The notes under the pieces are model-generated. The model ran no database searches, was not told the origin of the DNA, and saw only the letters and a program-made list of their open reading frames with translations. Below are positions 7,138 to 56,624 of a DNA stretch of 64,000 nt, one piece after another. Position 1 is the stretch's first letter, and every line of letters starts with the position of its first letter. Source of the DNA: a virus; the IMG/VR virus record IMGVR_UViG_3300045988_158809; one strand, 5' to 3'. The position numbers and the translations under genes are program-made.

Positions 7138-8088
7138 ATGGAAGAATTAGACAGACAGATAATTGAAATGTACCGTGCAGGCATAAAGGTGTCCGAAATT
7201 TGTCGTACATTGGGCACACACACCCAGAAAGTATATAAGGTGCTCCGAGAAAACAATATCTCGAAGAACGGACGCCGACTGACTCCGGAAGTTATTCAGG
7301 AAATTGCAGAAAAGCTTCGTCAGGATGTGCCATCTACAAAGCTGGCCGAACAGTACGGATGCTCCGTCTGGACCATACACAAGATTATGCGCGAAAACAA
7401 CATACCTATGCAGGTGGGCCGTCCGTGGCATCGCCGCAAAGACAAGCAGGCAGCATCCGCGCCATCTGCTCCCATCCCTGAGTCCTTACAAGCTCCCGAA
7501 ATGCCTGATTCGCTTCGCGCACTGGTCATGGCACCTGAAAACCGTACGTACTTTGCCTGTTTCCACAAAAACAAAAAAGAAGTGTCTTCTGCAGCCGAAG
7601 CGGTAGCCTTTCTGTATTCCGTCATGTCACGCCGTTTCACGCTGTCGTCCGACGACGTGACTCGCATAGAGCAGACATTTGCCCAGCTACAGGCATTCGA
7701 CAAACCGCGCCAGACGCTTGTATGCCCGCTCAGCATAAATGAAAATCTCCGTTTTAAGATTATGCTGGCACCGGAAGTGAACGCGCAGTACAGCGCATTC
7801 CAGAAGGGACGCGACGAGAGTGTGGTGAGATTGAAAAAGACAGACTGGCGGGCTTTTAATCCGGGCATGTACGGCATCTGTATTCCGGTAGGCGTGTATT
7901 CTGAGAATGGCGATGCGGTGAAGTATTACGACTTTAAGGGAGCGGTTCAGGCCGAATGCAAGGAGCAGGCATACGATCGTGCGCTGGATAAGTTGAAGGC
8001 AGAAACCGGTGAAGATCGTTTCAACAGCCTGAAAGTTCCTGGCAAGTACAGCGACAAGGTAAAATTCACTTTCAAGCCTATGGACTGA
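7138..8088 (+). CDS. DNA-binding protein with two tandem N-terminal HTH repeats (316 aa)
   Basis: IEMYRAGIKVSEICRTLGTHTQKVYKVLRENNI and LRQDVPSTKLAEQYGCSVWTIHKIMRENNI are repeated HTH-like units. Confidence 0.55.
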   Translation: MEELDRQIIEMYRAGIKVSEICRTLGTHTQKVYKVLRENNISKNGRRLTPEVIQEIAEKLRQDVPSTKLAEQYGCSVWTIHKIMRENNIPMQVGRPWHRRKDKQAASAPSAPIPESLQAPEMPDSLRALVMAPENRTYFACFHKNKKEVSSAAEAVAFLYSVMSRRFTLSSDDVTRIEQTFAQLQAFDKPRQTLVCPLSINENLRFKIMLAPEVNAQYSAFQKGRDESVVRLKKTDWRAFNPGMYGICIPVGVYSENGDAVKYYDFKGAVQAECKEQAYDRALDKLKAETGEDRFNSLKVPGKYSDKVKFTFKPMD

Positions 8089-8134
8089 CAAAAATATCAC
8101 CCTATGGAGTTTTTGAGAAATCACTGATTTTTTT
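8077..8134 (+). repeat. early-region junction motif, double unit; overlaps the stop of 7138..8088
   Basis: cctatggactgacaaaaatatcaccctatggagtttttgagaaatcactgattttttt. Confidence 0.85.
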
Positions 8135-8154
8135 GAAACATTCATTCCATTAAA

Positions 8155-8802
8155 ATGAAAAAGAACAGATTGTTTGAAGAGCGTAAAAGAAAAGTGTCCG
8201 CAAAAGCCAAAGAATTGGTCGATTCAGCTTTTAAACGAATTGATGAAGAGCATGAACTTTTAAAGGACAAAAATCTGCCTAAAGAGGATTTATTTCAATC
8301 AATATCTAAAACAACAAACATGAAAAAAGAATTCACATTAGAACAACTCGTAACGATACGCGACGTGTTTGCCGACATGTGCGACAAGCAGATTGAACGC
8401 GGAAAAAGAGATTTGGCAGAAGAATATCTGGACATTGTGAATGTAGTTCAAGCCAAAACAGGATGCGACGAATACGAAAGTCTGGAAGATTTTCAACTTG
8501 ACGAGAGTGGAACTTACGGCTATGCGGAAAAGAGAGAGCTGGACGACCTGGAAGAAGTGGCAGTGGACGAAATGATAGCTTTCGCAAAGTCTTCTGACGA
8601 GCAGCCATGGGAAATACTGAAAGCGAGAGTAAACAATTATCTGGAGGATGTTTCGGCAAACACAGGCATGACCCGTAAGGACACAATAGACCGTAGAACC
8701 ATTTGCATAAACAGGCTAATTATTCATTGTATCCATGCCTGCACCAGCGAAGAATTGAAGCGTCTGGACGGGATAGTAAAAGAACTTGCAGAGAATTTTT
8801 AG
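8155..8802 (+). CDS. hypothetical protein (215 aa)
   Basis: ORF track; acidic. Confidence 0.65.
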   Translation: MKKNRLFEERKRKVSAKAKELVDSAFKRIDEEHELLKDKNLPKEDLFQSISKTTNMKKEFTLEQLVTIRDVFADMCDKQIERGKRDLAEEYLDIVNVVQAKTGCDEYESLEDFQLDESGTYGYAEKRELDDLEEVAVDEMIAFAKSSDEQPWEILKARVNNYLEDVSANTGMTRKDTIDRRTICINRLIIHCIHACTSEELKRLDGIVKELAENF

Positions 8803-8868
8803 CCTATGGGCTCGGAGAAATATCACTCTATGGCATTTGCCAGAAATCACTGATTTTCCCACCTATGA
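8803..8868 (+). repeat. early-region junction motif, double unit plus a third partial CCTATGA; last copy in the window
   Basis: cctatgggctcggagaaatatcactctatggcatttgccagaaatcactgattttcccacctatga. Confidence 0.8.
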
Positions 8869-8965
8869 TTACGGTAAAAATATTTTACACTAAAATCACG
8901 CAAAAAAGTCGCTACGAAAACAAAAAATTTCTACCGCGGTAGCAAAAAAACGCCTTCGTAGTCAC

Positions 8966-9011
8966 ATAAAAAATAAGCATACAGTCCGGTAGTTCTGTAT
9001 GCTTATTTTTT
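8966..9011. terminator. bidirectional intrinsic terminator
   Basis: 12-bp stem ataagcatacag / ctgtatgcttat with a 10-nt loop, flanked by an A-run and a T-run; lies between convergent gene blocks. Confidence 0.7.
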
Positions 9012-9025
9012 ATTCAGATGTCGGT

Positions 9026-9490
9026 TTAAGTCAACTCTCCACCTCCACCGTCTTCACCACCGCCAGACTCTCCGCCGCCACCGGGTGATGTCGGTTCCGT
9101 GTCGGCTTCTTCGTAAGACACGACCGACAGATTACCGATAAATTCACGAAGTTTCTTTCCCGGTTGGAAAAGTATATGTTTGCGTTTTATGGAGTCCACT
9201 GTGGCTGTATCTGCCGTGTCCTGGCTTGCTGCGCTGAAAGTTGGTTTGAAGATACCGAAATCGCCAAGCCTTACGCCGTGACCTTGTTTCATAAACGTAA
9301 TACTTACTTCAATAAGAGCTTCTATAGCTGCATAGACTTCACCGTTATTAAGACGTGATTGTTTAGCGACTTCCTGAAGAATGTCCTCATAGCTGACTGT
9401 GTGGTTTCGCTGTGCGGTAGCCACATACTTTTCTGCTTTAGTCTTGTCGAAAGCAAAAACTCTTTTCTTTACTTTGTAACCTAATGGCAT
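9026..9490 (-). CDS. HU/IHF-like DNA-binding protein, Bacteroidota type, with Gly/Glu-rich tail (154 aa)
   Basis: VSYEDILQEVAKQSRLNNGEVYAAIEALIEVSITFMKQGHGVRLGDFGIFKPTF fits the HU-fold pattern. Start moved to MPLGYKV (ATG 9490) from ORF-track 9562. Confidence 0.65.
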   Translation of the reverse strand: MPLGYKVKKRVFAFDKTKAEKYVATAQRNHTVSYEDILQEVAKQSRLNNGEVYAAIEALIEVSITFMKQGHGVRLGDFGIFKPTFSAASQDTADTATVDSIKRKHILFQPGKKLREFIGNLSVVSYEEADTEPTSPGGGGESGGGEDGGGGELT

Positions 9491-9587
9491 AATTTTAAGG
9501 TTTAGTTTTTGTGTTTTGTATTGTGCTGCATCTACCGGAATGCGCCATAAAGATAAAAACAATTATCGGAAATGCAAATTTTCGGGG

Positions 9588-9625
9588 ATAAAAAAAGCTG
9601 CTGCATTTATAGGTGCAACAGCTTT
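9588..9625 (-). terminator. intrinsic terminator after the rep gene
   Basis: Minus strand reads AAAGCTGTTGCA-loop-TGCAGCAGCTTT followed by TTTTTTT. Confidence 0.55.
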
Positions 9626-9642
9626 TATCAGAGGATATGTAA

Positions 9643-11187
9643 TTATTTTTGAACTATCTCATACTTAATCTTCGCCTTCTCGCCAAATGCAGCTTCCGAA
9701 GCCTGTTCCAGCAGGGGCTTGAAGTTTTCCTGAATATATGTGTAGAAGAATGCGGTAGGCACTTTAATCGTGACTGTACCGCAGCCCGTTCCGCCGTAAT
9801 CGAGAAAGCGTAGCCAGGTGTTATATTCCGTCACGGTGCAGTTGTTCTGAATCACGTCCATGAAGATTTGCCATGCCTGGAGTTCCTTTTCCGTAGGCTG
9901 CGGGGTGGGGGATGCTTCCTTCTCCTCCTGCTGCCCTTTCTGTTCCGGTGGTTCCGGGTGAGCTTCTGGCGTGCGGCTGGTGATGAAGTTCTTCAGCGAG
10001 GTGATGACGTATGCCTTTACTGAGCGCGGCTTGTATCGCTTCACCATATCGCCCAGTTCGAGCACATATTTGCGGAAGTCGTTCACCAGCTCGTCGGGAA
10101 GCATATCCGACAGGCCTTTCACGTCGGTATCGGTCAGCTTGTATTCGGTGCGAAGGAGCGTCCATGCGTCGGCAGGCTGGTTGATGCGCTTGCGCTGCTG
10201 ACGGAGTTCTTCGCCCAGTCCTGAAAGCTTTATCTGGAACTGCAGGTTTTCGGGGTTTCCCCGCTTTGCGCCATTCTTGTATAGCGGCTTGTAATCAAAA
10301 GTAAAGTCCACGAGGTTGTATTCAGAAAGTTCGTCCAGATCTTCCTTTATCGGGTCGAGCACAGTGGAACAGAAACGTGAAAATTTGGGGTAAATGTCCT
10401 TATCCACCTTCACCTTGTTTCCGTTCTTGTCAGTTTCGGTCACTTCCTCTATCAGTCCGAGGTACTTTTTAAGCTCTACAAGGTTGACTGATTTACTGCC
10501 TATATCCTTCCATCGGGTGAGGTAGATGTAGATGGAAGGGGTGCGCTTGCGCCGGCATATACGGGTGATGTGGCGAAGATGGTTCATGTATCCCAGTCCG
10601 TTTCCGAGGTCGCAAAGGTATCTCAGGGTATTAAGCGACATCTGGACTTCCACATAGTTTTCGCGCCGTGTGGTGCTTTTCTTGTATTTGTATGTGCCTC
10701 CGATTTTCTCTTTTTCGGGAATACTGATTTCGGTGAACACATTTGCGAACACGCGCCTTAGCTGACCTGTTTCGGCATCCCGGCGTATGTAAGTGACGGA
10801 CATGTTTTTCAGATTCCCGCACGTTTCCTGAAGGATATGATACGCGTCCGGCTTTACACCTATCGATGCGGTATCTACGCGCAGAGTGACTATCTTGTTT
10901 TCGGTCTGTTTATTGTCTTTCGACTTATCCAGGCACTCCGCAAGGTCGTTTTCTTCTGGCATTCCGAGTTCAGGGAAAAGTACGAGCTGACGCCCGGCAT
11001 TTCCTTTTTTCAGGTATTGGTTGAACTGGTCCTGCAGGGAGTTCATGAGTTCTATCATGATGCTTCGCTCCGTGAGGGTGAAGTCGCCTCCTATCGTGGC
11101 GTAAAGATACGGCTGCTTGATAAATTCACAGTCTTTCAGCTCGCTTACAAGCTGGCTTTTCGGCAGAATATCTTTCTGTTTTTTCAT
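9643..11187 (-). CDS. replication initiator (plasmid Rep-like N-terminal part) with C-terminal DnaA-domain-I-like module (514 aa)
   Basis: Adjacent to iterons. The C-terminal 80 aa (WQIFMDVIQNNCTVTEYNTWLRFLDY..TVTIKVPTAFFYTYIQENFKPLLEQ..KIKYEIV) mirror the DnaA N-terminal domain pattern. Confidence 0.6.
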   Translation of the reverse strand: MKKQKDILPKSQLVSELKDCEFIKQPYLYATIGGDFTLTERSIMIELMNSLQDQFNQYLKKGNAGRQLVLFPELGMPEENDLAECLDKSKDNKQTENKIVTLRVDTASIGVKPDAYHILQETCGNLKNMSVTYIRRDAETGQLRRVFANVFTEISIPEKEKIGGTYKYKKSTTRRENYVEVQMSLNTLRYLCDLGNGLGYMNHLRHITRICRRKRTPSIYIYLTRWKDIGSKSVNLVELKKYLGLIEEVTETDKNGNKVKVDKDIYPKFSRFCSTVLDPIKEDLDELSEYNLVDFTFDYKPLYKNGAKRGNPENLQFQIKLSGLGEELRQQRKRINQPADAWTLLRTEYKLTDTDVKGLSDMLPDELVNDFRKYVLELGDMVKRYKPRSVKAYVITSLKNFITSRTPEAHPEPPEQKGQQEEKEASPTPQPTEKELQAWQIFMDVIQNNCTVTEYNTWLRFLDYGGTGCGTVTIKVPTAFFYTYIQENFKPLLEQASEAAFGEKAKIKYEIVQK

Positions 11188-11242
11188 GGGAAAAAGTTTT
11201 ATATTCGATTCGACACTTTATCTGACCTAAGTATTACTGAGG

Positions 11243-11500
11243 TCAGCTTTTCACTTCGCGTATTTCGAAGTGTCTCTCTCCGCTGGTGAAGGTGGATACC
11301 ACGCGCGAGGTATCGTCTTCTATCAGACTGATGAATGACACGCCGAGCACCTGGGCCACTTTCTCCATAAACTCGGTGGTGCAGCTCAGGTGTCCGTTCA
11401 TGCGCTGTGAGAGCGCCACCGGAGTCATTCCGAGTTCCTGGGCAAGTTCTATCTGCGACATGCCTTTTTCTTTCAGAATTTCCTTTATTCTTAATTTCAT
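11243..11500 (-). CDS. XRE-family HTH regulator (85 aa)
   Basis: IKEILKEKGMSQIELAQELGMTPVALSQRMNG is a classic Cro/CI HTH; first gene of the minus-strand rep operon. Confidence 0.75.
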   Translation of the reverse strand: MKLRIKEILKEKGMSQIELAQELGMTPVALSQRMNGHLSCTTEFMEKVAQVLGVSFISLIEDDTSRVVSTFTSGERHFEIREVKS

Positions 11501-11522
11501 GATGAATGTGTTTTGTTTCCGG

Positions 11523-11543
11523 CAAAGGTAGAAATAATTTCTA
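11523..11543 (-). promoter_or_regulatory. minus-strand -7 box TACCTTTG (11523-11530) overlapped by the 15-bp palindrome TAGAAATAATTTCTA (11529-11543)
   Basis: Read directly; 22 nt upstream of ATG 11500. Confidence 0.5.
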
Positions 11544-11601
11544 AATAATGAAATATTATTCTGGCATATTTCTATAAATCGAAATTATAAGAAAATATAT
11601 A

Positions 11602-11737
11602 GTTGTAGTAATTTGTACCTTCAGGCTGAAAAGTTGTAGTAAATTGTACTAAATGTTGGGGTAATTTGTACAATAAGTTGTAGTAATTTGTACCAAATGT
11701 TGTAGTAAATTGTCCCTATAGTTGTAGTAATTTGTAC
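11602..11737 (+). repeat. six 17-bp iterons GTTGTAGTAATTTGTAC
   Basis: Copies start at 11602, 11633, 11655, 11677, 11699 and 11721; the last five are spaced exactly 22 bp. Confidence 0.85.
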
Positions 11738-11932
11738 CGAAGCGTTTTTAATTTGCTGATTTTCAATTATTATTGCATCGTTATATATCTATATCTTATC
11801 ATTTCATATTTAAGCAGAACGAAAGGTATTTATTCTATAAATAATAATCTTTCCTCTTTTCCATATACTATGATGGATATATGATATAGAGAGTTTGTGA
11901 CGGTTGAATTTCAGAAGGTTACAAATGCGTTT
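11738..11932. other. AT-rich spacer between iteron arms (candidate DNA-unwinding region)
   Basis: Visibly AT-rich, no ORF, flanked by oppositely oriented iterons. Confidence 0.4.
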
Positions 11933-12058
11933 GTACAAATTACTACAACATTTGGTACAAAACGCTCAAACATTAGGGGCAAAACGGTGCAACATTACGG
12001 CCAAAATGATACAGCATTAGGGACAAAAAGTTCCAACTATACGGTCACAAAAATAGCA
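11933..12058 (-). repeat. inverted iteron arm: one exact inverted iteron (11933-11949) plus five degenerate 22-bp-phased units
   Basis: gtacaaattactacaac is the reverse complement of the iteron; ACATTnGG-like unit starts at 11948, 11970, 11992, 12014 and 12036. Confidence 0.7.
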
Positions 12059-12158
12059 GCCCCGATTCACATCGGAGCTGCATTTCCGCCGGTCGCATCC
12101 GGCATACTGTAATCAATCTAAAATTCAAGTTTTATGCTAATACTCAATTCAGAGTGCA

Positions 12159-12479
12159 TTATCTGTAGTCTACGCAAATAATCGGCTCTCCTGCTACCCC
12201 CGTTATCATACGGAAACCCTGGGCTCCCAGGAGCTCCAGGTAGTTTACCAGCGGGTCGCCAAGCGGACGAGGGTAAGCCTGAAAATACGACCGCAGCCGC
12301 GCTTCATCGAAAATCTCGTCGGCATCGGCTTCGTTGTCGGTATATCTGTATGACTTCACAAATGCTTCCACCTTGTGATAGGAAACGAAGTCGAGCACGC
12401 TGGGGCCCGATTGGGTTTCGGCCTGAGACGGTTCCGAATCGTACTCGTCGCGATCGTATTTTCGTTTAGACTTTCCCAT
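12159..12479 (-). CDS. hypothetical protein (106 aa)
   Basis: ORF track; minus-strand -7 box at 12525-12532. Confidence 0.55.
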   Translation of the reverse strand: MGKSKRKYDRDEYDSEPSQAETQSGPSVLDFVSYHKVEAFVKSYRYTDNEADADEIFDEARLRSYFQAYPRPLGDPLVNYLELLGAQGFRMITGVAGEPIICVDYR

Positions 12480-12524
12480 TTTTCTAAAGCATTTTACTTA
12501 TGTTGAAGAAATTCTATTGCGTTG

Positions 12525-12532
12525 CAAATATA
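12525..12532 (-). promoter_or_regulatory. minus-strand -7 box TATATTTG
   Basis: + strand reads caaatata. Confidence 0.4.
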
Positions 12533-12627
12533 GGATATTTTCTTTATCTAAATGCTAAAAACGACAATAAATCTCCTTTATGTTTAAAAATATATACCAA
12601 AACGGTAAACATTTATGAATACTTTTA

Positions 12628-12635
12628 TATATTTG
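12628..12635 (+). promoter_or_regulatory. -7 box TATATTTG
   Basis: Exact TAnnTTTG about 80 nt upstream of the terminator at 12717. Confidence 0.4.
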
Positions 12636-12641
12636 TGCGCA

Positions 12642-12742
12642 TGAAGGCATCCGTGAGGATATCCAATTCGACTCATTAGTTGGTGAATCGTATTCTTTAT
12701 TTAGGTAACAATTCTTCTGCCACGGGAAACCGTGGCAGTTTT
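12642..12742 (+). ncRNA. candidate ~100-nt small RNA or leader transcript
   Basis: Bounded by the -7 box at 12628-12635 and a strong intrinsic terminator; no credible ORF. Confidence 0.3.
12717..12742 (+). terminator. intrinsic terminator (9-bp stem, GAAA tetraloop, TTTT)
   Basis: ctgccacgg gaaa ccgtggcag tttt. Confidence 0.7.
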
Positions 12743-12836
12743 CCGGGTATTAATGATTTGATAATTCTCATTTTCATTACTTGCTGCGCCTTTTGTGAAA
12801 AATGTGCGGCGGTCTTTTTTTATAGTAGCTATACGA

Positions 12837-12868
12837 GGGAAAGAACCGAAAGATTCTTTCCCTTTTTT
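12837..12868 (+). terminator. intrinsic terminator (9-bp stem, T6)
   Basis: gggaaagaa ccgaaaga ttctttccc tttttt. Confidence 0.7.
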
Positions 12869-12933
12869 GTGAAAAAACGGCTCAAATGGTATATTAACTT
12901 TTTGTAATGCCCAAAAACATAAAAAATAATATA

Positions 12934-12961
12934 CCATTTTGGTATAGATTCTTTATCTTTG
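12934..12961 (+). promoter_or_regulatory. module-boundary box CCATTTTGGTATAGATTCTTTA fused to -7 box TATCTTTG (12954-12961)
   Basis: Near-identical boxes at 25494-25516 and 49224-49246 (opposite strand) and a related one at 41846-41863. Confidence 0.6.
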
Positions 12962-12995
12962 TAGCAAAATTTAAAATATTAATACCGGGTATGTA

Positions 12996-14741
12996 ATGGA
13001 AAACGTTATTACAAATGCTTATGGAACAGGTAATTTATTGTCCAGAAGCAATCTCATGAAAGGCTGTACTTCTTACAGCGCAACGAGTATCGAAAACTGT
13101 TCGGGCGACTTTGCCCGTATGCTGCATCCCGCATCCGTCGGTAATCTGGTCACGGTCAGCAATCCGTACGACAAATTTTCTACGCAGGAACGTGAGGCGA
13201 TGGCCCACACCTGGCACTTTCATCTTATCTCTGCCGAATGCACCTTTGCAGAATATCTGTATAACTATGTGCGCGAACTGGAGCAGATGATGGACGCTCA
13301 CGGTTTGCTGAAGTTCAACGCCAAGCGTCTGGTGAATGAACTGAAGGATACCGTACAGAGTATGCAGGTGCTCGTAAGGGGACACGGACGCGCACAGATC
13401 AAGCTTTTCTGTGTTCCTATCTTCGCCCCGATGGCCGACGAGTATTACAACATCGGCGGAGACCTGACAAGCCGTATCGTGCTGCGCATCCGCAAGCGCA
13501 TTGACGAGGAAGTGACCCGTATGTTCTACTGCACGAAGAATATGCTGAACCGTACCGGTTGCCCGTATGCCGACGTGCTGAACCACCTGCAGATGATTAT
13601 GTTCGTGGTGACTACCGATATAGAGTTTTCCGACGTGGTGAGAGACCGCGCAAGAAAGTTGCTCGACGGTACCGGAAAGGAGATTCAGTACACCATGTCG
13701 AACCACAACGCGCGCATCGTGAAGGCCGCACGCCAGCTCATCCTCCAGCTATACAATGAAACGAAGTATCCTTTCCACAAGGAGGATATGGAAAACGTGC
13801 GTACGCTGGCCCGCGTGATTCAGGAAAGGCTGGTGGGCGAACGTACCCGCGATGCGATGGACGAAGAAATATGGGGTGTGCGCGGCGACTTTACGCTCTT
13901 CGTGCTTCTCCGTCTGGCCATGCGCCTGCAAGGTCAGGGCGAGCCGGTGAGCCGCAAGGAGCTGAAGCATCTGCTGTTCCGCCTGGGCACGAAAGAGAAT
14001 GTGCGGGCCTTTGTGAAGGAACTGCGGGCAACCGCTATTCCCGAAGGTGAGGACATGATAGACCGCCTGGAGGGGTTTGACATTCCGGAAAGCAGTGACA
14101 CCCTGATGCAGCAGTTTTTCCGCCTGTGTCTGGAAGACAAGTCGATGTACCGGCCTTTCAGCTCGGACGAGGAAGTGAAGATGCGAAATATTCGTCAGAT
14201 GGTGTACTACAGCAAGGACTCCACTATCAGCGATTCTATGCTACGCTACATCTTCATCATGAAGGGAGGAGTGAAGAAGCGGGTGGAAGAGTTTCTTTCC
14301 GCCGCCGGTACCGAAGTGATGCGCAAGACGCTGCGCAAGCTGAAAAAGATGAAGGTGGCCGACCTGCAAGGACGAAAGGGCCGTTACTACTTTGATTTCT
14401 TTAAGGGTATAGACGAGCTGCGTAAGGAGCGCGGACTGAGCGACAAGGGCATGATGCAGGCCATGGGTTTAGGAAAGACGAAATATTACGGCATGAAGAA
14501 AGTCACCTCCATGCGCTATACGCGTGGTGATGAAATAAGCCGTCTGATTCGTGACCTTTCCACTTTCATGAAGGTGGATGCCGCCTATTACCTGTATCTG
14601 TGCATCCGTGAGACGGACAACGAGCTGGTTTCCGAGCAGACGGTGGAATACGTGCTTCGACGCGGCATTGTGGTGTATCTCACGAATAATGAAATCATGG
14701 CCGAAATGGATTCTGGAGAAGAGTATCAATTGGAAGGATAA
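12996..14741 (+). CDS. hypothetical protein (581 aa)
   Basis: Long uninterrupted ORF, visibly GC-richer than its flanks; no domain recognised. Confidence 0.7.
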   Translation: MENVITNAYGTGNLLSRSNLMKGCTSYSATSIENCSGDFARMLHPASVGNLVTVSNPYDKFSTQEREAMAHTWHFHLISAECTFAEYLYNYVRELEQMMDAHGLLKFNAKRLVNELKDTVQSMQVLVRGHGRAQIKLFCVPIFAPMADEYYNIGGDLTSRIVLRIRKRIDEEVTRMFYCTKNMLNRTGCPYADVLNHLQMIMFVVTTDIEFSDVVRDRARKLLDGTGKEIQYTMSNHNARIVKAARQLILQLYNETKYPFHKEDMENVRTLARVIQERLVGERTRDAMDEEIWGVRGDFTLFVLLRLAMRLQGQGEPVSRKELKHLLFRLGTKENVRAFVKELRATAIPEGEDMIDRLEGFDIPESSDTLMQQFFRLCLEDKSMYRPFSSDEEVKMRNIRQMVYYSKDSTISDSMLRYIFIMKGGVKKRVEEFLSAAGTEVMRKTLRKLKKMKVADLQGRKGRYYFDFFKGIDELRKERGLSDKGMMQAMGLGKTKYYGMKKVTSMRYTRGDEISRLIRDLSTFMKVDAAYYLYLCIRETDNELVSEQTVEYVLRRGIVVYLTNNEIMAEMDSGEEYQLEG

Positions 14742-14753
14742 ACAATATATAAA

Positions 14754-15609
14754 ATGAATTTGACAGAGAAAATAGAGTATTCAATTAATCTATTGAAAAA
14801 GAGTGAGAAAATGGCTCTTAAAATAGACCCTGAAAACGGCTTTTATTTGGCGTTTTCGGGTGGGAAAGACTCACAGGTATTATACCATTTAGCCGTAATG
14901 GGGGGGGGTGAAATTTAAAGCCCACATGAACCTTACAAGCGTAGATCCACCGGAGGTTATCAGGTTCGTAAAACAGCATTATCCTGATGTGGAACTGATA
15001 AAGCCGAAAATGAGTATCTATGATATGGCGAAGAAGAAAGGCTGTCTTCCTACTCAGAAAGTCAGATGGTGCTGTGAGGAATTTAAGGAAATGTCTGGGG
15101 CCGGCAAGGTTACGTTAATCGGAATAAGACGAGAGGAAAGTGCAAGAAGATCGAAGCGTAATGAGGTAGAAATGAATAATTATAAATTCAGCGGAAGCTT
15201 CGGTCAGTGGAGCGAACATCGCGAGAATATGGTGACTTGCGTGGGAGGAAAAGATAAGATAATTGTCAGTCCGATACTCTACTGGACGAGCCGCGACGTT
15301 TGGGAGTTTCTTAATTCAAACTACATACCTCATTGCAGTCTTTACGATAAAGGGTATAAAAGAATAGGTTGCATACTCTGTCCAATGTCAAATTATAAAC
15401 AAAAGATTAGAGAGATAAGAGATTATCCGCATGTTAAAAGAAATTGGATAAAAGCTATAGAGTGGATGATGGAAAATAAATGGACTGAAAAACGTTTAAC
15501 GGAAGATGCGGAAATGGCTTTCAACTGGTGGATAAGCGGGAAATCTTTCAAACAGTTTTATGCGGATGAATATCTGCAACAGAAGATAGATTTTGAGAAC
15601 GTAAAATGA
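14754..15609 (+). pseudogene. PAPS-reductase-family (PP-loop ATPase) gene split by a frameshift in a G9 tract
   Basis: ATG 14754 encodes MNLTEK..FYLAFSGGKDSQVLYHLAVMGGG and stops at 14916-14918. The rest (VKFKAHMNLTSVDPPEVIRF..RREES..) continues in the next frame from 14908. Removing one G fuses both parts. Confidence 0.7.
14900..14908 (+). repeat. homopolymeric G9 tract
   Basis: Counted directly: g at 14900 plus 8 g at 14901-14908. Confidence 0.95.
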
Positions 15610-15615
15610 TTTACT

Positions 15616-16119
15616 ATGAACTATAGAAAAGAAACTGAACTTGGGCCGGATGCCATTCAGAAATGGTGTGAGGAATTGGACAGAAAGCCTAAGATGGAAA
15701 TGAGCGAAGAAGATACAAAAATCTTTGTAGGAATAAAGCTTAGAGAAGATAAGATAAACAATGATTTGTATTGTAAGACAATGCTTGCGATGTCTCTTGT
15801 ACATAATAGAATAAAACAGTTTCACACATTCACAGCCAACAATGCTGTGCTGATGTTTCTGGGCTGCATGATTGATCGTCCTGGTATCGCAGTGGAATAC
15901 TGTAACTATATGCAGTACAAATGCTGGCAGCACGGAATCAAACACGTTGATATGGATTCATTCAGCAGATATATTTTCCCCATGGGATTTTTCAGCGAAG
16001 AAACTCTTCATGAAATGTGGGAGAAACAGAAAATCATTCCTAAAGACGGCGGAGGTTTGGCAAATATGCTCGATCATCCGGAATTTATGGAAAGTATCAG
16101 AGAGATTAAAGAGAAGTGA
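15616..16119 (+). CDS. hypothetical protein (167 aa)
   Basis: ORF track. Confidence 0.65.
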   Translation: MNYRKETELGPDAIQKWCEELDRKPKMEMSEEDTKIFVGIKLREDKINNDLYCKTMLAMSLVHNRIKQFHTFTANNAVLMFLGCMIDRPGIAVEYCNYMQYKCWQHGIKHVDMDSFSRYIFPMGFFSEETLHEMWEKQKIIPKDGGGLANMLDHPEFMESIREIKEK

Positions 16120-16634
16120 GTATGGGAAAGGTTGTATTCGCAAAAACATCATGCAAGTCAGCTTCGGCAAAGCTTATTGACGACAGACTGGAGAAGGCTT
16201 TTGATGATCATATTTATATCGCTTACGATGCCCTGTATAATGATTACGGGGTGACAGGTGATTTGTCTGACGGATTATTTGCTGATAAACATGAATTTCA
16301 GCTTGATCCGGACGAAGCCGACATGAGCCTTTGGGAGAATATCCGCGATGACTGGTATATTCCGAAAGAAGATGCAGCAGATGAGAATCTTCGAAAGATA
16401 TGGAAAGATATTAATGAACTTTTCCCGAAGAAGTCAGAAATAGCAGAAATGCTGAAGTTGCCAGCCGGAACGGAAGTATTGGAATACGTTTCAAACCGGA
16501 AAGGTTTTGATGTGTTCGTATTCTACTTTAATTGCGAGTATAAACCGGAACTTCTGCCCGATGATTTGGAAGAGATTTCCGACAAGGAATACGAAAGACT
16601 TTCGGGCGGAATTATTGAATTTCTTAAACGATAA
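16116..16634 (+). CDS. hypothetical, strongly acidic protein (172 aa)
   Basis: ORF track; GTG 16116 overlaps the upstream stop (alternative ATG at 16122); Asp/Glu-rich. Confidence 0.6.
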   Translation: MSMGKVVFAKTSCKSASAKLIDDRLEKAFDDHIYIAYDALYNDYGVTGDLSDGLFADKHEFQLDPDEADMSLWENIRDDWYIPKEDAADENLRKIWKDINELFPKKSEIAEMLKLPAGTEVLEYVSNRKGFDVFVFYFNCEYKPELLPDDLEEISDKEYERLSGGIIEFLKR

Positions 16635-16640
16635 ATAGTT

Positions 16641-17123
16641 ATGGACAGATATTACAAAACAGCAAAGGATTCTGAAACTGGGAAGAAGCTTTCGGAATTG
16701 GTAGAAAGATATAACGATTTTGAAGTCAAGAAAAAGGAGTTTGCTGAGAAGTACGGAATAAAAGGATTTTACAGTTATGAAATGTATTTAGCCCATGTAG
16801 GTGATGTAGTGTTTAAAGACAGTTCGCATGTAGATAAAAACAACTGGAAGAAAGGCTGTGCTTCAAACGCCTACCTGCCTAAGCAGAACCCGAAAGACAG
16901 GCAGCTCAAAAAAGACTGGGAAGAGCTTCGTTCTAAATCCATCCAGCGTTTTGAGCTTGATAAGATTGTAGGAGGTAAGGATCCGTTTCACATGTGCGGA
17001 TTTGATTACTCCTCCGAAGATTACTTCTTCATCATCACAAACAAACCGGAGAAATTCGATTTTCCTTTCGACGTGATAGAGATTAGTAACCTGGAATATT
17101 TGGAACTTACAAAACAGAAATGA
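16641..17123 (+). CDS. hypothetical protein (160 aa)
   Basis: ORF track. Confidence 0.65.
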   Translation: MDRYYKTAKDSETGKKLSELVERYNDFEVKKKEFAEKYGIKGFYSYEMYLAHVGDVVFKDSSHVDKNNWKKGCASNAYLPKQNPKDRQLKKDWEELRSKSIQRFELDKIVGGKDPFHMCGFDYSSEDYFFIITNKPEKFDFPFDVIEISNLEYLELTKQK

Positions 17124-17124
17124 T

Positions 17125-18117
17125 ATGGAAAACAAATTACCGAAATATATCAAAGGACAGTTTGTGGTAATGAGAAGTATAGAAGAGCTTCGAGCCATGA
17201 ATTATAAAGACGATGTGCTTAATTTTGTCCGTCCACTTGCGGGACAGGTAGTTATTATAGATAATGTTTCTAAAGCAGCGAATTCTTATTTTTATACCGT
17301 ACGAAAGTATAAGGAAAATCATTGTGTAATGGTACATGAAGATTTTATTTTGTGCGATGCAAACGGCCGGACGCAAAGAGAATCTCTTGAATGTCGCAAT
17401 GAAATAGACAGTATAATAGCTCGTGATATTCATGTAGCGCAATTAGATACCAGCAAGTTCAATCCCAGCCCTATGGAAACATGGAAAGCCTTGTTTGCCA
17501 GTGTAGAATCTTTTCTCTCCGTTGCTTCTCCTGATATACAGGCATGGGCAGCCGGACAACTATATGGTTACTCTGAATGTCTGATGCAGCAGATAACTGA
17601 AACGCCTATAGAAGCTCCGGATACCGGGAAGGAAGATTTCAATGCTACAATTCTTGTATGTCTTGCAGATGATGTACTGGAATGTCCGAATGAATGTGGA
17701 GGAAAAGAATTTGCTACTGGTACATTTAAACTGAAAGATGGTGCTTATTTCAGTAAGTACAGGATAAAGTCGTCATGTGTAGTTTATACTTCAAAAAACA
17801 TCGGATTAAGAAGTTATAACCATAAATCCGGACTTTTTTCTTTGGGATTTACAATTCGTCAGGAAGGATTTACTGAAGAAGATTTAAAGGATTTCCTGTT
17901 TAAATTTAAGGGAAGGAGAGTGGTTTTATTGTATAAGGAAGATGACAAAACATATTATAGCTGTATTTATACCAATGATATTACTTCTTCTTATGTGAAT
18001 TTTCTTTTAGATGAATCTGGTCTGAAATATGTTAGCCTGATTGCAGAAAGAGTTTTTGCTTTAGAGATAAGATTAAAAGAAGAGGATTTGAATTTATCTG
18101 AATTATTAAAAGACTAA
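17125..18117 (+). CDS. hypothetical protein (330 aa)
   Basis: ORF track. Confidence 0.7.
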   Translation: MENKLPKYIKGQFVVMRSIEELRAMNYKDDVLNFVRPLAGQVVIIDNVSKAANSYFYTVRKYKENHCVMVHEDFILCDANGRTQRESLECRNEIDSIIARDIHVAQLDTSKFNPSPMETWKALFASVESFLSVASPDIQAWAAGQLYGYSECLMQQITETPIEAPDTGKEDFNATILVCLADDVLECPNECGGKEFATGTFKLKDGAYFSKYRIKSSCVVYTSKNIGLRSYNHKSGLFSLGFTIRQEGFTEEDLKDFLFKFKGRRVVLLYKEDDKTYYSCIYTNDITSSYVNFLLDESGLKYVSLIAERVFALEIRLKEEDLNLSELLKD

Positions 18118-27015: not shown

Positions 27016-27513
27016 ATGAATTTAACCAGACCTTACAAGACCTGCCGCGTATGCGGATGCACCAAGCCGAAAGAGGATTTCGTGGAAGGAAGGAAAGTAT
27101 GTCTCTCTTGCTTCTCCGAATACAATAAGCAGCTCTACAGAAAAAGACATGCAGACCGTTCGGATGGAGTAAGATACAGCAAGGAATCCCGACAGATAGT
27201 GGAATACCGTAACGGGCTACAGCGGAAATACTGGAATCCGCAGATGATAGCCGATTTCAGGAAATTGTTTCCCGTCACTACGAATGAAGAGCTTGCTTCT
27301 TTGTTCTGTGTGTCGAAAAGAACAATCAACCGTAAGGCTACGGAACTGGGGTTGAGAAAAGATGCGGAGTGGATGCGGAAGATGAGTCGTCACAACCTGT
27401 TTTTCGCATCGGTGAAGAATCGCTTAAACGGTTATTCACAACTGGTAAAGGCCCGTAAGGCACTGGAAATAAAGTATAACAATCCGAATTTTACAAGAAT
27501 AGACAGAGTATGA
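27016..27513 (+). CDS. zinc-ribbon + HTH DNA-binding protein (165 aa), paralog of 26506..27012
   Basis: CRVCG..CLSC then TTNEELASLFCVSKRTINRKATELGL. Confidence 0.6.
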   Translation: MNLTRPYKTCRVCGCTKPKEDFVEGRKVCLSCFSEYNKQLYRKRHADRSDGVRYSKESRQIVEYRNGLQRKYWNPQMIADFRKLFPVTTNEELASLFCVSKRTINRKATELGLRKDAEWMRKMSRHNLFFASVKNRLNGYSQLVKARKALEIKYNNPNFTRIDRV

Positions 27514-28292
27514 ATATAGAACTGAATACAATATATAACGAGGACTGTATGGAAGGTATGAAGCGTATTCCTGACGGATCGGTGGATTGCATTATTTGTG
27601 ATTTGCCGTATGGAGTATTGAATAGAGGAAATGAACATGCGCAGTGGGACTGTCCTTTACCTATGGATCAACTTTGGGCTGAATATAAAAGAGTAACAAA
27701 GGACAATGCAGCTATAATTCTTTTTGCTCAAGGAATGTTTACTGCAGATTTAATGGTTAGCAACAGGAACATGTGGAGATATAATCTGATATGGGATAAA
27801 ATGGGTAAAACGGGATTTTTGAACGCCAACAGAATGCCTCTCCGACAGCATGAAGATATATGTGTATTCTATAATTCTTTGCCGGTGTATAATCCACAAA
27901 TGGAGAAATGTGAATTGCATAAAAGAAATCATGGACGTGGAAATCTTAAATCGCCTGTAACAAATAGTTGTTATGGTAAACATATAGAAGTAAAAACTAT
28001 CGAAAGTGATGAAAAATTCCCTACTTCTATTATAAGTATATCAAAGGAACATAAAATAGGGCATTTTTTTCACCCCACCCAGAAACCCGTTTCCCTCCTG
28101 AAATACCTCGTCCTCACCTACTCTAACAAAGGCGACACAATTCTTGACAACTGTATTGGAAGTGGCACAACAGCCTTAGCTTGCATAGATACTGGGCGCA
28201 ACTTCATCGGATTCGAGAAAGAAAAGAAATATTTCGACATAGCCATGAAGCGTATCGCTCAAATGAGACAACAACCAAAACTTGATTTTTAA
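27510..28292 (+). CDS. DNA methyltransferase, beta-class N6-adenine/N4-cytosine type (260 aa)
   Basis: Motif IV SVDCIICDLPYG precedes the PTQKP and DNCIGSGTT (motif I) segments, the order typical of the N6_N4_Mtase family. Confidence 0.85.
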   Translation: MNIELNTIYNEDCMEGMKRIPDGSVDCIICDLPYGVLNRGNEHAQWDCPLPMDQLWAEYKRVTKDNAAIILFAQGMFTADLMVSNRNMWRYNLIWDKMGKTGFLNANRMPLRQHEDICVFYNSLPVYNPQMEKCELHKRNHGRGNLKSPVTNSCYGKHIEVKTIESDEKFPTSIISISKEHKIGHFFHPTQKPVSLLKYLVLTYSNKGDTILDNCIGSGTTALACIDTGRNFIGFEKEKKYFDIAMKRIAQMRQQPKLDF

Positions 28293-28312
28293 TAAAAACC
28301 AAAACATACAAA

Positions 28313-29077
28313 ATGGAAAAGAAACAGACCGTTTATTTCCGGTTCCCTGCAGGAAGTGAGGGAGCGGAAAGCATGAAAAAACTCGTGGAAGCAATTACAA
28401 CTTGTGAAGATAAGGCCGAAGAGCTGGCCCTGGAAATGGGAGTCACTGAATACTACCATGACAGCACGGCGGAATTCGGGGGCATTGGACTGATGAGCTT
28501 CGAACGCAAGCCGAAGTCGTCCGTTTTCAAGCAGGTGGATGTGATCAGCCATAAGGAGGGCGAATCGAAGTGTCAACTCGACAAGCTGTATCAGCTCAAC
28601 GTGGACAGCGTAGATCTGGTGATGACCGAAGAAGAAACAGAAAAGCATCTGGGCCTTACGAATGTGCTTATCAGCTCCCAGCACTACACATGGTTGGAGA
28701 TAAAGCACCGTCTTACCATTTCATCGGCTGCGCAGATGTGCGGTTACAAGCTGACCGGCGATAAGGAGCGCGACGACGAATATATCACCATGCAACTTGG
28801 AGGAAAGAAGTTCCGCATCGTGACTGTGCTGAAATCAAAGAGCCAGCAGGCAATAGAATGGTACAAGGCCGTGAACCGCCTCCCCACTCTCCCACCCTTC
28901 ACCAGCAACCAATATGCCGGTGTACCCGTGGAAGGACGGCAGCCCGTGTATTTCTTCTTCAACATAGCGGGCGATTTCTTCTGCAAGGCTCCGGCGTACA
29001 GCAGCTTTTCGCACGAGATACTGACGGAATCGGCCTTCACGAGCATTTATGAAGGACTTAATACGAATAGAACATGA
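28313..29077 (+). CDS. hypothetical protein (254 aa)
   Basis: ORF track. Confidence 0.7.
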   Translation: MEKKQTVYFRFPAGSEGAESMKKLVEAITTCEDKAEELALEMGVTEYYHDSTAEFGGIGLMSFERKPKSSVFKQVDVISHKEGESKCQLDKLYQLNVDSVDLVMTEEETEKHLGLTNVLISSQHYTWLEIKHRLTISSAAQMCGYKLTGDKERDDEYITMQLGGKKFRIVTVLKSKSQQAIEWYKAVNRLPTLPPFTSNQYAGVPVEGRQPVYFFFNIAGDFFCKAPAYSSFSHEILTESAFTSIYEGLNTNRT

Positions 29078-29182
29078 GACTACACATTGAAAAATCGGCG
29101 GGACTGTACCTCATTCCTTTCTACATAAGGCGGGGCGGTCCGGGTTATCGTGAAAAAATCATTTATTTTTTGAAGTGGCGAA

Positions 29183-29620
29183 TTGCCGTTATTTGGAACA
29201 AGAAAGATGGACGCTAAGGAATTGAAACAGGTTTTGGAGCAGGACTTGTCGGTGCTTTCACCTCGTGAGAGAGCATACGCGCTGGCAGAAAAAATCAAAG
29301 TGTATCGTGAATATGGTATGAGAAACGTGGCGAAGGAAAAGGAGACCGACGTGGAGAAGGCTTTGCGCATGACACGCAATGTTTCCTTCCTCACCACGAA
29401 GGAAGAAAAGGAAATGTATGCGGGCGCTTTGCTGGCCGCAATCCGCTGGGGGCATAAGATTGACCGGATAAACAAGGCTTCGCAGAAGTCGGTAATTGAG
29501 CAGGCCGGTGGACAGAAGCCGGAGAAAAAAGCGGAGACGCAGGAAGAGCGAAGAGAACGCATACGCAAGAATTTTGAGAGATCTGTGAAACTACAAGATT
29601 TTTATAGGAGATATAATTAA
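29183..29620 (+). CDS. hypothetical protein (145 aa)
   Basis: ORF track; Lys/Glu-rich. Confidence 0.6.
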   Translation: MPLFGTRKMDAKELKQVLEQDLSVLSPRERAYALAEKIKVYREYGMRNVAKEKETDVEKALRMTRNVSFLTTKEEKEMYAGALLAAIRWGHKIDRINKASQKSVIEQAGGQKPEKKAETQEERRERIRKNFERSVKLQDFYRRYN

Positions 29621-30165
29621 TGTACAGATTAGACAATCTAATAGAACAGTGGGCGACGGAGTTCAAGCTTGTCTCCCACAATCCCGAAGGCGGTGCAGAC
29701 GGCAAACGGTTTTTCCGCATCGACTCCATATCGGACCTGAAACCCGTTATTCTGAGTCTGACGAAAATCAAGACTCCCGTAGTGGCATACAGCACGCAGA
29801 TAGAAGGCTCGTCCAACGAGGGCGGAAACGGAACGTACTATCTGGCGAACATCTACATACTCGTTCCGCAGGAGAAAACCACAGCCCCCTACCGTGAGGA
29901 CTTGAACGCGGCAAACGCCAAATATCTGGCAGTGGAGATAGCGGAAAAGCTGAAGGCATGGCTCATGGAGAAGAAGAAGAACGAAAAGCAATACCCGGAA
30001 CTGAGAGGTCTAAACCTGAAAACGGCAGCTATGGGATCATTCCCCAAACATTTCAACAACTGGTGGCCGCTCCATATCCAAATGGATTATCTGAACGCCG
30101 ATTACGTGTGCGTAAATCCCGAAGACTATCACCAGGACGAAGCCGGGGAGGGCGCACAGTCATGA
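29620..30165 (+). CDS. hypothetical protein, paralog of the tail-module gene 58183..58689 (181 aa)
   Basis: N-termini nearly identical: DNLIEQWATEFKLVSHNPEGGADGKRFFRID vs DNLLEKWATTFKAISHNPEGGAAGKRFFRID; shared C-terminal CVNPEDY. Confidence 0.7.
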   Translation: MYRLDNLIEQWATEFKLVSHNPEGGADGKRFFRIDSISDLKPVILSLTKIKTPVVAYSTQIEGSSNEGGNGTYYLANIYILVPQEKTTAPYREDLNAANAKYLAVEIAEKLKAWLMEKKKNEKQYPELRGLNLKTAAMGSFPKHFNNWWPLHIQMDYLNADYVCVNPEDYHQDEAGEGAQS

Positions 30166-30650
30166 AACGTCTGCCTCTTATAGTAGCCGCCTCCCTCCTC
30201 TGTGCTACCCTCTTCTTCGGATGCCGCACACAGCAGACCGGCACCACACGCATCATCACCCTTCGCGGCGACACTGTGATACGCAACCGTGTGGTACCCG
30301 TGGTATCGCCGGCAGACTCGGCCAGGATAAAAGCCCTCATGCGGTGCGACGAGAACGGACGTGTCCTCCTTGACTGGTACGAGCAGGAATGCAGCAAGAA
30401 CGCGCGTCTGAAGTTCAAACTCGATTCGCTTGGCAAGCTGATGATAGACTTCGACGTTCTCCGCGATACGGTGTACATTCCCGTGGCAGACACAACCGTG
30501 AACCGCAGCAGCAGCGTGGAAGAAGTCAATACGGTGGAAGTGGAGCGAAAAATGCGCTGGTGGGAGAAATATCTTATAGGAGTCGGGATATTGGCGCATG
30601 GTGTGTTAATCGGCTTCGGAATCTTTAAACTAAGGAAATTGTGGATTTGA
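30162..30650 (+). CDS. lipoprotein with C-terminal transmembrane helix (162 aa); unimolecular-spanin-like architecture
   Basis: MKRLPLIVAASLLCATLFFGC lipobox; C-terminal YLIGVGILAHGVLIGFGIF; the ORF-track start 29958 overlaps the upstream gene. Confidence 0.55.
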   Translation: MKRLPLIVAASLLCATLFFGCRTQQTGTTRIITLRGDTVIRNRVVPVVSPADSARIKALMRCDENGRVLLDWYEQECSKNARLKFKLDSLGKLMIDFDVLRDTVYIPVADTTVNRSSSVEEVNTVEVERKMRWWEKYLIGVGILAHGVLIGFGIFKLRKLWI

Positions 30651-30967
30651 TGAAAAAGACGAAAGTATATATCAGTCTGCCTATCTCAGGGCACGACATC
30701 GAGCAGGTGAAGAAACGCGCGGAGGAAGTGAAGCTGCGAATAGAGAACGACAGAGTGGAAGCCATTACCCCCTTCGACGTGTGCGACGAGAAAGACCGTC
30801 CATACTCCTACTACATGGGGCGCGACATCGAAGCCCTGATAGAGTGCGACGGCATCTATGTGTGCAACGGTTGGCACTCGTCGAAAGGCTGTCAGGCGGA
30901 AGTCCATGTAGCTGTGGTGTACGACAAGAAAATGGTGTTTGAGAGTAAAAGTAAGGTGTTTGTATGA
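30650..30967 (+). CDS. DUF4406-like / nucleoside 2-deoxyribosyltransferase-like protein (105 aa)
   Basis: VYISLPISG ... DIEALIECDGIYVCNGWHSSKGCQAEVHVA matches the pattern recalled for this family; TGATG overlap with the upstream stop. Confidence 0.5.
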   Translation: MKKTKVYISLPISGHDIEQVKKRAEEVKLRIENDRVEAITPFDVCDEKDRPYSYYMGRDIEALIECDGIYVCNGWHSSKGCQAEVHVAVVYDKKMVFESKSKVFV

Positions 30968-36305: not shown

Positions 36306-36371
36306 CGAAAAATTTTCATTGCAATCACAGAAAATTTTTATTGCATTCGCAGAAAATTTTCATTGCAATGC
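36306..36371 (+). repeat. three tandem 22-bp repeats, each containing the palindrome GAAAATTTTC (imperfect in copy 2)
   Basis: cgaaaaattttcattgcaatca / cagaaaatttttattgcattcg / cagaaaattttcattgcaatgc. Confidence 0.85.
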
Positions 36372-41784: not shown

Positions 41785-41827
41785 AAAACTTGAATTAAAT
41801 GTTAAAGATTTAATCTCTCACAAAAAA

Positions 41828-41873
41828 ATGGTATATAAACTTTACAAATGGTATAGATTATTTACTATCTTTG
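41828..41873 (+). promoter_or_regulatory. related module-boundary box (ATGGTATATAAAC, then AAATGGTATAGATTATTT) fused to -7 box TATCTTTG (41866-41873)
   Basis: Same GGTATAGATTnTTTA-TATCTTTG arrangement as at 12941-12961. Confidence 0.5.
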
Positions 41874-54640: not shown

Positions 54641-54651
54641 TATTGAAACAG

Positions 54652-56606: not shown

Positions 56607-56624
56607 AATTATATAAGTATTGGT

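Follow-up and report, generated by a model that had tools for sequence, protein, structure and literature searches.

Replication locus of the phage genome

A 64,000-nucleotide (nt) stretch of virus DNA (IMG/VR record IMGVR_UViG_3300045988_158809; hereafter the window), identical in sequence to positions 13801-77800 of a 98,060-bp contig, carries between positions 9,026 and 12,058 a replication locus in which a phage-borne initiator gene, rep, lies next to an origin built of short repeats (iterons). An earlier note, made from the letters of the sequence alone, had described this locus as a complete plasmid-type theta replicon, comprising an XRE-Rep-HU operon and an iteron origin, and had taken it as an argument for extrachromosomal maintenance of the phage. 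The three minus-strand open reading frames (ORFs) that the note named are indeed present, namely those for the XRE protein (11500 to 11243), the initiator of 514 amino acids (aa; 11187 to 9643), and the HU-like protein (9562 to 9026). The features of the locus are as follows.

9026-9490, minus strand: HU-family DNA-binding protein of the HU-HIG type, 154 aa, with a glycine-rich tail (PF18291, E 8.4e-26; Bac_DNA_binding, E 2.4e-8; TIGR01201 HU_rel, 66.7 bits)
9593-9626, minus strand: hairpin followed by a T-run, 17 nt past the rep stop codon, a probable terminator (AAAAGCTGTTGCA-N8-TGCAGCAGCTTTTTTT)
9643-11187, minus strand: rep, 514-aa initiator with a tandem winged-helix Rep_3-type core (~aa 20-330), a helical linker (~aa 340-405), and a C-terminal DnaA domain I (~aa 433-512; nt 9652-9891)
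11243-11500, minus strand: xre, 85-aa regulator of the HTH_3 family (E 1.8e-12), with a 55-nt gap to rep downstream
11523-11585, minus strand: promoter/operator region with a Bacteroidetes-type -7 box, TACCTTTG (11523-11530), and palindromes ATTTC-N8-GAAAT at 11537-11554 and 11568-11585, 31 bp apart
11598-11738, plus strand: left iteron array from repeat searches, six 22-bp-spaced copies of GTTGTAGTAATTTGTAC (0-2 mismatches)
11739-11927, no strand: A+T-rich spacer, the putative DNA-unwinding element (185 bp at 11739-11923, 73.5% A+T)
11928-12055, minus strand: right iteron array from repeat searches, inverted, spaced at 22 bp, with a perfect copy at 11933-11949 and another 4-5 copies that are degenerate

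In a tblastn search, the only matches to Rep were "replication initiation proteins" of Bacteroidales plasmids, with 22-27% identity over aa 9-402. Moreover, a family profile built from 26 phage homologs of Rep aligned in hhalign across both winged-helix domains with the plasmid Reps of Bacteroides fragilis (99.3%, E 4e-20) and Segatella copri (99.8%, E 1e-27). The three plasmid Reps examined score above the Pfam cut-offs for Rep3_N and/or Rep3_C, and Pfam finds no DnaA_N in them; the window's Rep has no Pfam match to Rep3_N (PF01051) and reaches 20.8 bits with Rep3_C (PF21205, the second winged helix), for which the cut-off is 21.1. As judged from these alignments, Rep is a distant Rep_3 protein with a predicted tandem winged-helix core, and the earlier description of a plasmid-type iteron replicon is borne out by this homology to the Rep_3 replicons of Bacteroidales plasmids.

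The C-terminus of Rep, about which the earlier note was silent, is a DnaA domain I by both sequence and fold. Pfam DnaA_N (PF11638) matches aa 438-496 with 34 bits (cut-off 24.6), and the family profile identified DnaA domain I of Bacillus subtilis (4tps_B, E 1e-9) among the PDB sequences, where the profile hidden Markov model found this domain only and not RepE. The AlphaFold model of Rep has a mean confidence (pLDDT) of 70 overall and of 84-91 over DnaA domain I, and Foldseek superposed the C-terminal domain on DnaA domain I with a template-modeling (TM) score of 0.79-0.82 and a root-mean-square deviation of 1.6-1.7, with DciA being matched as well; the core matched domains 2-3 of RctB (E 4e-4) and, weakly, RepE54 (E 0.04-0.1). 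No PHROGs family was found for Rep, and NCBIfam recognized only the DnaA N-terminus. In DnaA itself, domain I makes the contacts with the helicase, HU, and DiaA, and the phylum Bacteroidetes uses DciA, not DnaC. When 1.84 billion cluster representatives were searched exhaustively, 285 relatives of Rep were recovered; since DnaA_N was recognized in 17 of the nearest 96 representatives (Rep3_C in 55 and Rep3_N in 42), the Rep-DnaA_N fusion marks a subfamily.

The iteron origin lies where it had been predicted, beside xre and rep, yet it consists of two opposed arrays and not of one, so that the origin is mirror-symmetric about its A+T-rich spacer. Six copies on the left and 5-6 inverted copies on the right keep the 22-bp spacing, and the degenerate copies of the right array retain GTTG...TTTGTNC. 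With up to 3 mismatches allowed, the 17-mer iteron occurs seven times in the 64 kb (0.15 expected), each time at the origin locus, and none of 100 shuffles reached seven matches. Further, the A+T content of the spacer (11739-11923) is in the top 2% of all 185-nt windows, as befits an unwinding region. No DnaA box (TTATCCACA, up to 1 mismatch) was found in 11500-12160; such boxes are typical of the F, pSC101, R6K, RK2, and P1 origins, and they are not universal. An Rfam scan of 8800-13100 returned only a sub-threshold hairpin match of the kind expected by chance.

Related rep loci occur on at least 41 IMG/VR viral contigs, and 39 of the 41 loci were analyzable for iterons. All 39 contain iteron arrays at multiples of 21/22 bp, and in 37 of them arrays on both strands flank a gap of ~200-300 bp (73-80% A+T) situated 370-430 bp upstream of rep, with xre being upstream of rep in 40 of the 41 loci (and also in L016-L018). 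The relatives L016, L018, and L019, whose Reps are 48%, 43%, and 39% identical to that of the window, likewise have two opposed arrays of 21-22-bp repeats on either side of an A+T-rich gap of 175-200 bp; this arrangement immediately precedes xre-rep or rep, and the repeat sequence differs in each lineage. The IMG/VR iterons form several sequence groups, which follow the identity of Rep. Among the computational evidence, this joint change of iterons and Rep argues most strongly for Rep binding at the repeats and for a functional locus. The exact Rep protein is found on at least 22 gut-metagenome contigs, and homologs of 35-95% identity form 58 clusters at 90% identity, on contigs of up to 115 kb. 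The xre-rep-origin module is core to this phage clade, and we consider it very probable that it constitutes a functional Rep_3-type origin-initiator module.

The control region upstream of xre is conserved in its layout. L016 and L018 have the same operator arrangement with variant palindromes, TTTCC-N6-GGAAA at -80/-50, together with a TAnnTTTG box, and one of the L018 copies also reads ATTTC-N8-GAAAT; the palindrome pair and the box hold their position between the iterons and xre in three lineages. From this shared layout we infer that the XRE protein is the autorepressor of the xre-rep operon, acting at a Bacteroidetes promoter. The HU gene, by comparison, does not belong to the operon in which the earlier note had placed it. 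It adjoins rep in only 1 of the 41 related loci, that of the window's own lineage, and the terminator-like hairpin between rep and HU suggests that HU is probably its own transcription unit. Its ORF spans 9562 to 9026, and gene callers choose the ATG at 9490, which yields the 154-aa protein. HU is an accessory, lineage-specific gene outside the conserved module.

In some strains, IS605-family insertions are found at distances from rep of a few hundred bases up to 2 kb (L003 13495-14607, L004 13495-14607, and L017 12147-13877); the window has none. They encode TnpB with OrfB_IS605 and Cas12f1-like_TNB domains, and that of L017 also encodes a Y1 transposase. A 581-aa ORF beside the origin is not claimed as a part of the module, as it has no detectable homology to the 577-aa and 572-aa ORFs that occupy the corresponding place in relatives.

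Partition region, genome form, and maintenance

Other features of the window are as follows.

39120-39560, no strand: centromere-like region immediately upstream of parA, in which GTGNGTAA-like repeats with 8-bp phasing form two opposed fields (forward 39123-39307, reverse 39372-39558)
39625-40479, plus strand: parA, 284 aa, Walker-type (AAA_31, E 2.8e-44; phrog_164, E 6.6e-56; NF041546 ParA_partition, E 2e-27, below its cut-off)
40495-41001, plus strand: 168-aa ORF, with weak similarity (E 2e-6) to the ORF that follows parA in L016
41164-41865, minus strand: 206-aa helix-turn-helix (HTH) regulator (HTH_26, E 2.6e-7; phrog_8, E 1.9e-9), divergent from an operon of an exonuclease and a 1194-aa ORF
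44570-48154, plus strand: 1194-aa ORF, putative primase-helicase; the alignment shows a CPFH motif and, as an invariant Walker A motif, GGSGKS
59265-64000, plus strand: 5' part of a tape-measure-type protein, 1852 aa at full length (PhageMin_Tail PF10145, E 1e-10; full-length gene on L009)

The ParA gene that had been noticed at 39.6 kb is confirmed as a Walker-type ParA ATPase by its AAA_31 and phrog_164 matches. Upstream of it, within 440 bp, are 13 of the 40 matches to the GTGNGTAA motif in the window, and L016 has a comparable 8-bp-phased repeat field beside its parA (7624-8230). Judged from its repeat pattern, the field at 39120-39560 is probably the partition centromere, and the C-terminus of the 168-aa ORF, which looks ribbon-helix-helix-like when read by eye, would make this protein a candidate for the centromere-binding partner. 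In 33 of the 41 related loci, parA lies within ~3 kb of rep, whereas the two are 28 kb apart in the window's lineage.

Downstream of the partition genes, the 206-aa HTH regulator, whose divergent intergenic region contains two 20-bp direct repeats (41826-41865), is a candidate for a lysis/lysogeny switch. In the operon facing it, an Rv2179c-like 3'-5' exonuclease (43491-44213) is encoded upstream of the 1194-aa ORF. The latter has no Pfam, PHROG, or PDB sequence match, and its AlphaFold model (pLDDT 50) gave D5/E5 primase-helicases as the top Foldseek matches, which were not significant; on its motifs, it may be a primase-helicase that serves a second, lytic replication function.

That the replicon resides in a phage genome, as the earlier note had it, is supported by virion genes. 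The genome is ~98 kb in size and belongs to a clade of ~95-120-kb tailed phages of human-gut Bacteroidales; we class the element as a tailed phage because it encodes a tape-measure protein, together with a large terminase and a GH108 lysin. The terminase homolog (664 aa, E 5e-37 to annotated terminases) was read on an IMG/VR genome 87% identical to this one, where a portal-sized ORF of 598 aa, found on at least 80 viral contigs (75-145 kb) in IMG/VR, adjoins it; the GH108/PG_binding_3 lysin is encoded on the same contig as the window, upstream of it. The structural genes are mostly not recognized by PHROGs. In nr, one of the relatives of Rep goes under the name of a Caudoviricetes protein. We found no deposited phage that encodes the window's Rep, and a megablast comparison of 9000-12200 with phage and plasmid collections gave zero matches.

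The assembly topology, which the earlier note had singled out for checking, is circular. One independent scaffold of 98,091 bp closes on itself through an exact 55-nt end overlap, giving a circle of 98,036 bp, the junction of this scaffold is internal sequence in an assembly from another sample, and the start points of the same genome differ between assemblies from different samples. Contigs with Rep or its relatives reach their maximum at 95-123 kb, none exceeding 123 kb, and host flanks were absent from all of the >40 contigs of 55-123 kb. Among one genome each of 185,579 species, only two distant matches were obtained, both on small contigs of Bacteroidaceae metagenome-assembled genome bins. 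Further, no integrase or recombinase family was found among the window's genes by precomputed Pfam annotation and our own family scans, in agreement with the earlier observation, and the result extends to ~95% of the genome, in which Pfam, PHROGs, and NCBIfam revealed no integrase, recombinase, transposase, or telomere-resolvase family. This survey combined precomputed Pfam over contig positions 4.3-82.5 kb with our own scans of the remainder, ~3 kb lying outside it. Over the surveyed ~95%, the element joins the properties expected of a phage-plasmid, namely (i) virion and packaging genes (tape measure, large terminase as read on the 87%-identical relative, and GH108 lysin), (ii) plasmid-type replication and partition (Rep_3-type rep with iterons, and ParA with its repeat field), and (iii) a genome without an integrase that is never chromosome-flanked.

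We are highly confident that the replicon derives from plasmids and is core to the clade, and we consider it fairly probable, taking the whole together, that it is a working iteron-controlled theta-type replicon which together with ParA most likely gives a low-copy circular plasmid prophage. Such maintenance is made likely by the linkage of the partition cassette, the repressor-type switches, and the lack of both an integrase and host flanks. In the mechanism that we propose, the Rep_3-type initiator would bind the 22-bp iterons, as its homology and the match between iteron changes and Rep lineage suggest; seated on the two opposed arrays, it would bracket and melt the 185-bp A+T-rich spacer and could itself recruit the replicative helicase, which may be host DnaB or the putative primase-helicase of the phage. 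Because no DnaA box was found in the origin and a DnaA domain I is part of Rep, Rep may recruit the helicase unaided, and the mirror symmetry would favor helicase loading on both sides. XRE would repress the xre-rep promoter through the two palindromic operators that overlap it, a role suggested by their conserved layout, and could in this way set the Rep dose and the copy number. ParA, the small ORF downstream, and the repeat field upstream of parA would segregate the copies, and HU, accessory and lineage-specific, possibly helps to bend the origin. A more sweeping version, which we put forward tentatively and regard as rather doubtful, would have the whole clade of abundant ~95-120-kb gut Bacteroidales phages be circular phage-plasmids, in which a Rep_3 protein with a captured DnaA domain I acts as a self-sufficient, DnaA-independent initiator that recruits helicase on two sides of a mirror-symmetric iteron origin devoid of DnaA boxes.

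Several observations weigh against maintenance as a plasmid prophage. The element was found in no isolate genome and in no PLSDB plasmid searched, nor did the genome and PLSDB searches turn up any record of a lysogen or of a host cell maintaining it as a plasmid. Terminally redundant or circularly permuted virion DNA would give a circular assembly just as readily. There is no sign change of the GC skew at the origin, the skew being positive on both sides and the cumulative skew climbing steadily across window positions 1-64000, so that composition lends no support to dominant bidirectional replication from the origin; the skew tracks gene orientation, not the origin, and may simply reflect the direction of transcription. 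As for the proteins, the putative centromere-binding 168-aa ORF has no family match in Pfam, PHROG, and NCBIfam scans, the window's Rep itself is just below the Rep3_C cut-off (20.8 vs 21.1 bits), and its AlphaFold model is moderate (pLDDT 70), with weak Foldseek matches to RepE (E 0.04-0.1). Finally, ~3 kb are outside the integrase survey, which for a part of the structural region relied on the 87%-identical relative alone.

Some of these observations would be equally at home in the main rival explanation, in which the module is a lytic (early theta) origin only, as in the case of lambda O and its origin, and the phage is virulent or in a carrier state, with ParA in some other role. An iteron initiator by itself is insufficient for claiming a plasmid prophage, because lambda O and its origin are of the same functional type, and yet lambda integrates. 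A lytic origin would be expected in the conserved core gene set of a clade, which is where the module is found; the phage may encode its own primase-helicase as well as a PriCT-type primase protein; and both the lack of the element in the lysogen and plasmid records searched and a circular assembly derived from a permuted linear genome are compatible with this explanation. Against it, however, 33 of the 41 relatives show close linkage of the origin to a ParA gene with its repeat field, and partition is needed only for stable low-copy inheritance. Moreover, the XRE-gated initiator, the CI-like HTH switch (41164-41865), and an ORF related to antirepressors are features of a temperate type, and the nearest relatives of Rep are initiators of plasmid maintenance. 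We regard a purely lytic role as unlikely, while ranking it as the foremost rival.

Little probability attaches to the other explanations. The element could be a large plasmid with acquired phage genes, carrying a defective phage or tailocin-like cargo and not being infectious, a possibility to which we give slight credence: the plasmid-type rep and par genes and the mostly unrecognized structural genes would suit it, but large terminase, portal-sized ORF (on those at least 80 IMG/VR contigs), tape measure, and endolysin are all present, conjugation or mobilization genes were not seen, and the Rep relative in nr bears a Caudoviricetes name. Very slight is the credence that we give to an ordinary integrating prophage with a replicon active only after excision. 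Its integrase would have to be too divergent for recognition, among the many ORFs without a family, or be encoded in the remaining ~3 kb, whereas no surveyed gene matched an integrase, recombinase, or transposase, host flanks occur on 0 of the >40 contigs, the family is nearly absent from the 185,579 species-representative genomes, and the same genome is assembled from varied start points into a circle that closes.

Relation to known replicons

The closest known counterparts of the replicon are the Rep_3 plasmids of Bacteroidales, such as those of B. fragilis (CP103262.1, rep_cluster_663) and S. copri (NZ_CP137558.1), which share its host order. Their initiators are homologous to that of the phage in both winged-helix domains (22-27% identity), and 22-bp iterons lie beside rep in two of the three plasmids examined. 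The plasmid Reps, however, are 385-411 aa long and lack the DnaA_N match of the 514-aa phage Rep, the iteron arrays of the B. fragilis plasmid are direct where those of the phage are mirror-symmetric around an A+T-rich gap, no xre is annotated upstream of the plasmid rep genes, and their carriers are plasmids and not a tailed phage. The 93-kb plasmid of S. copri, which provides the best Rep match, was considered as a related phage-plasmid and rejected, as it is an ordinary cargo plasmid.

A Rep_3/iteron replicon combined with ParA is the standard design of enterobacterial phage-plasmids (P1-like and SSU5-like). With these P1- and SSU5-type elements (RepA with iterons, ParAB), the present phage has in common that it is tailed, encodes an iteron-binding type of initiator and a ParA, and has no integrase. 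It differs from them in that no sequence relation to any deposited phage was detected, the host phylum is another one, the origin is mirror-symmetric and without DnaA boxes, Rep carries DnaA domain I, and plasmid maintenance is here a proposal. P1 has DnaA boxes in its oriR and a separate lytic replicon, to which the putative primase-helicase operon under its own repressor may be the parallel here. Lambda O is likewise a phage-encoded initiator, one that binds iterons beside an A+T-rich region and recruits the host helicase; the resemblance to the present module lies in the initiator and in the iterons beside an A+T-rich region, whereas the placement of the iterons inside the O gene, the delivery of helicase via the P protein, integration, and the lack of a partition system are peculiar to lambda.

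In Bacteroidota, phage-plasmids had seemed to the earlier note not to be well documented, which is no longer tenable: Carjivirus communis, the prototypic crAssphage, was reported as a linear, RepL-based phage-plasmid (PMC10983915), the crAssphage phage-plasmid is also the subject of a 2025 paper in Cell Host Microbe, as cited in PMC12823448, and a survey of gut phage-plasmids found in Bacteroidota only crAssphage relatives (bioRxiv 10.1101/2025.02.07.636470). With crAssphage being the one phage-plasmid reported in the phylum so far, the present element is a variant and not the first of its kind there. Like crAssphage, it is a gut Bacteroidales phage of about the same size (~97 kb in crAssphage) without an integrase and with proposed plasmid persistence. 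Whereas crAssphage is reported as linear, has RepL genes, and belongs to Crassvirales, the present phage has a Rep_3-DnaA_N fusion, iterons, ParA, a circular assembly, a tape measure, and a G+C content of 32-53%.

New with respect to the comparators examined are the host lineage, the fusion of DnaA domain I to an initiator whose origin is free of DnaA boxes, and the mirror symmetry of the iterons. Our literature search found no paper on iteron origins in Bacteroides phages or on Rep-DnaA_N fusions, and no plasmid or phage origin that combines mirror-symmetric iterons, a lack of DnaA boxes, and a Rep-DnaA_N protein. If the plasmid-prophage reading is true, phage-plasmid persistence in the dominant gut phylum would not be limited to crAssphage but would be shared by a separate, widespread clade (the 58 Rep clusters and at least 41 IMG/VR viral contigs noted above), and would help to account for gut phages that persist without an integrase and are wrongly classed as virulent. 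For Bacteroides genetic tools, the 2.5-kb xre-rep-origin cassette would be a candidate new replicon, and the Rep-DnaA_N fusion makes it possible to test directly how an iteron initiator recruits a helicase in a phylum with DciA in place of DnaC.

Neighboring genes and variable regions

Two further terminator-like elements enclose the replication locus.

8966-9013, no strand: perfect 19-bp inverted repeat (100% complementary) with T-runs, downstream of HU, terminator-like, possibly in either direction
12056-12081, minus strand: terminator-like stem-loop at the end of a 106-aa minus-strand gene (12159-12479), with an 11-pair stem, 7 G-C pairs, and a T-run

The second of these would shield the origin from incoming transcription.

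On L009, where the tape-measure gene is complete (11110-17711, corresponding to window position 59265 onward), the gene that follows it encodes a BT4734-like/PriCT_2 primase-domain protein. The tape-measure gene itself precedes the terminase gene by ~10 kb and lies outside any recognizable tail module.

Upstream of it, a minus-strand cassette of low GC content (32-37%) at 54650-57350 comprises five small or medium ORFs, among them a 385-aa ORF (54978-56135), the only sizeable minus-strand ORF without a family. We considered this ORF as a hidden integrase and rejected it, as it has no recombinase match and its partial relatives carry ANT/KilAC or pRha domains; it is related to antirepressor-type proteins. 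The cassette varies by strain (383, 354, and 259 aa in L009-L011) and faces an HTH_19 gene and a HIRAN-domain gene.

A DNA-modification-type gene cluster occupies window positions 27510-31887 and includes an N6_N4 methyltransferase (27510-28292), a DUF4406 protein, and a radical-SAM protein (30964-31887; phrog_9298, E 3e-123); a PAPS-reductase-like gene near 15 kb is present in addition in some strains (L002 and L003). These genes possibly act in DNA hypermodification or anti-restriction. At 36309-36369, just upstream of a Dam-type methyltransferase gene (36465-36950), a 22-bp unit, AAAATTTTCATTGCAATCACAG, is repeated 2.8 times in tandem.

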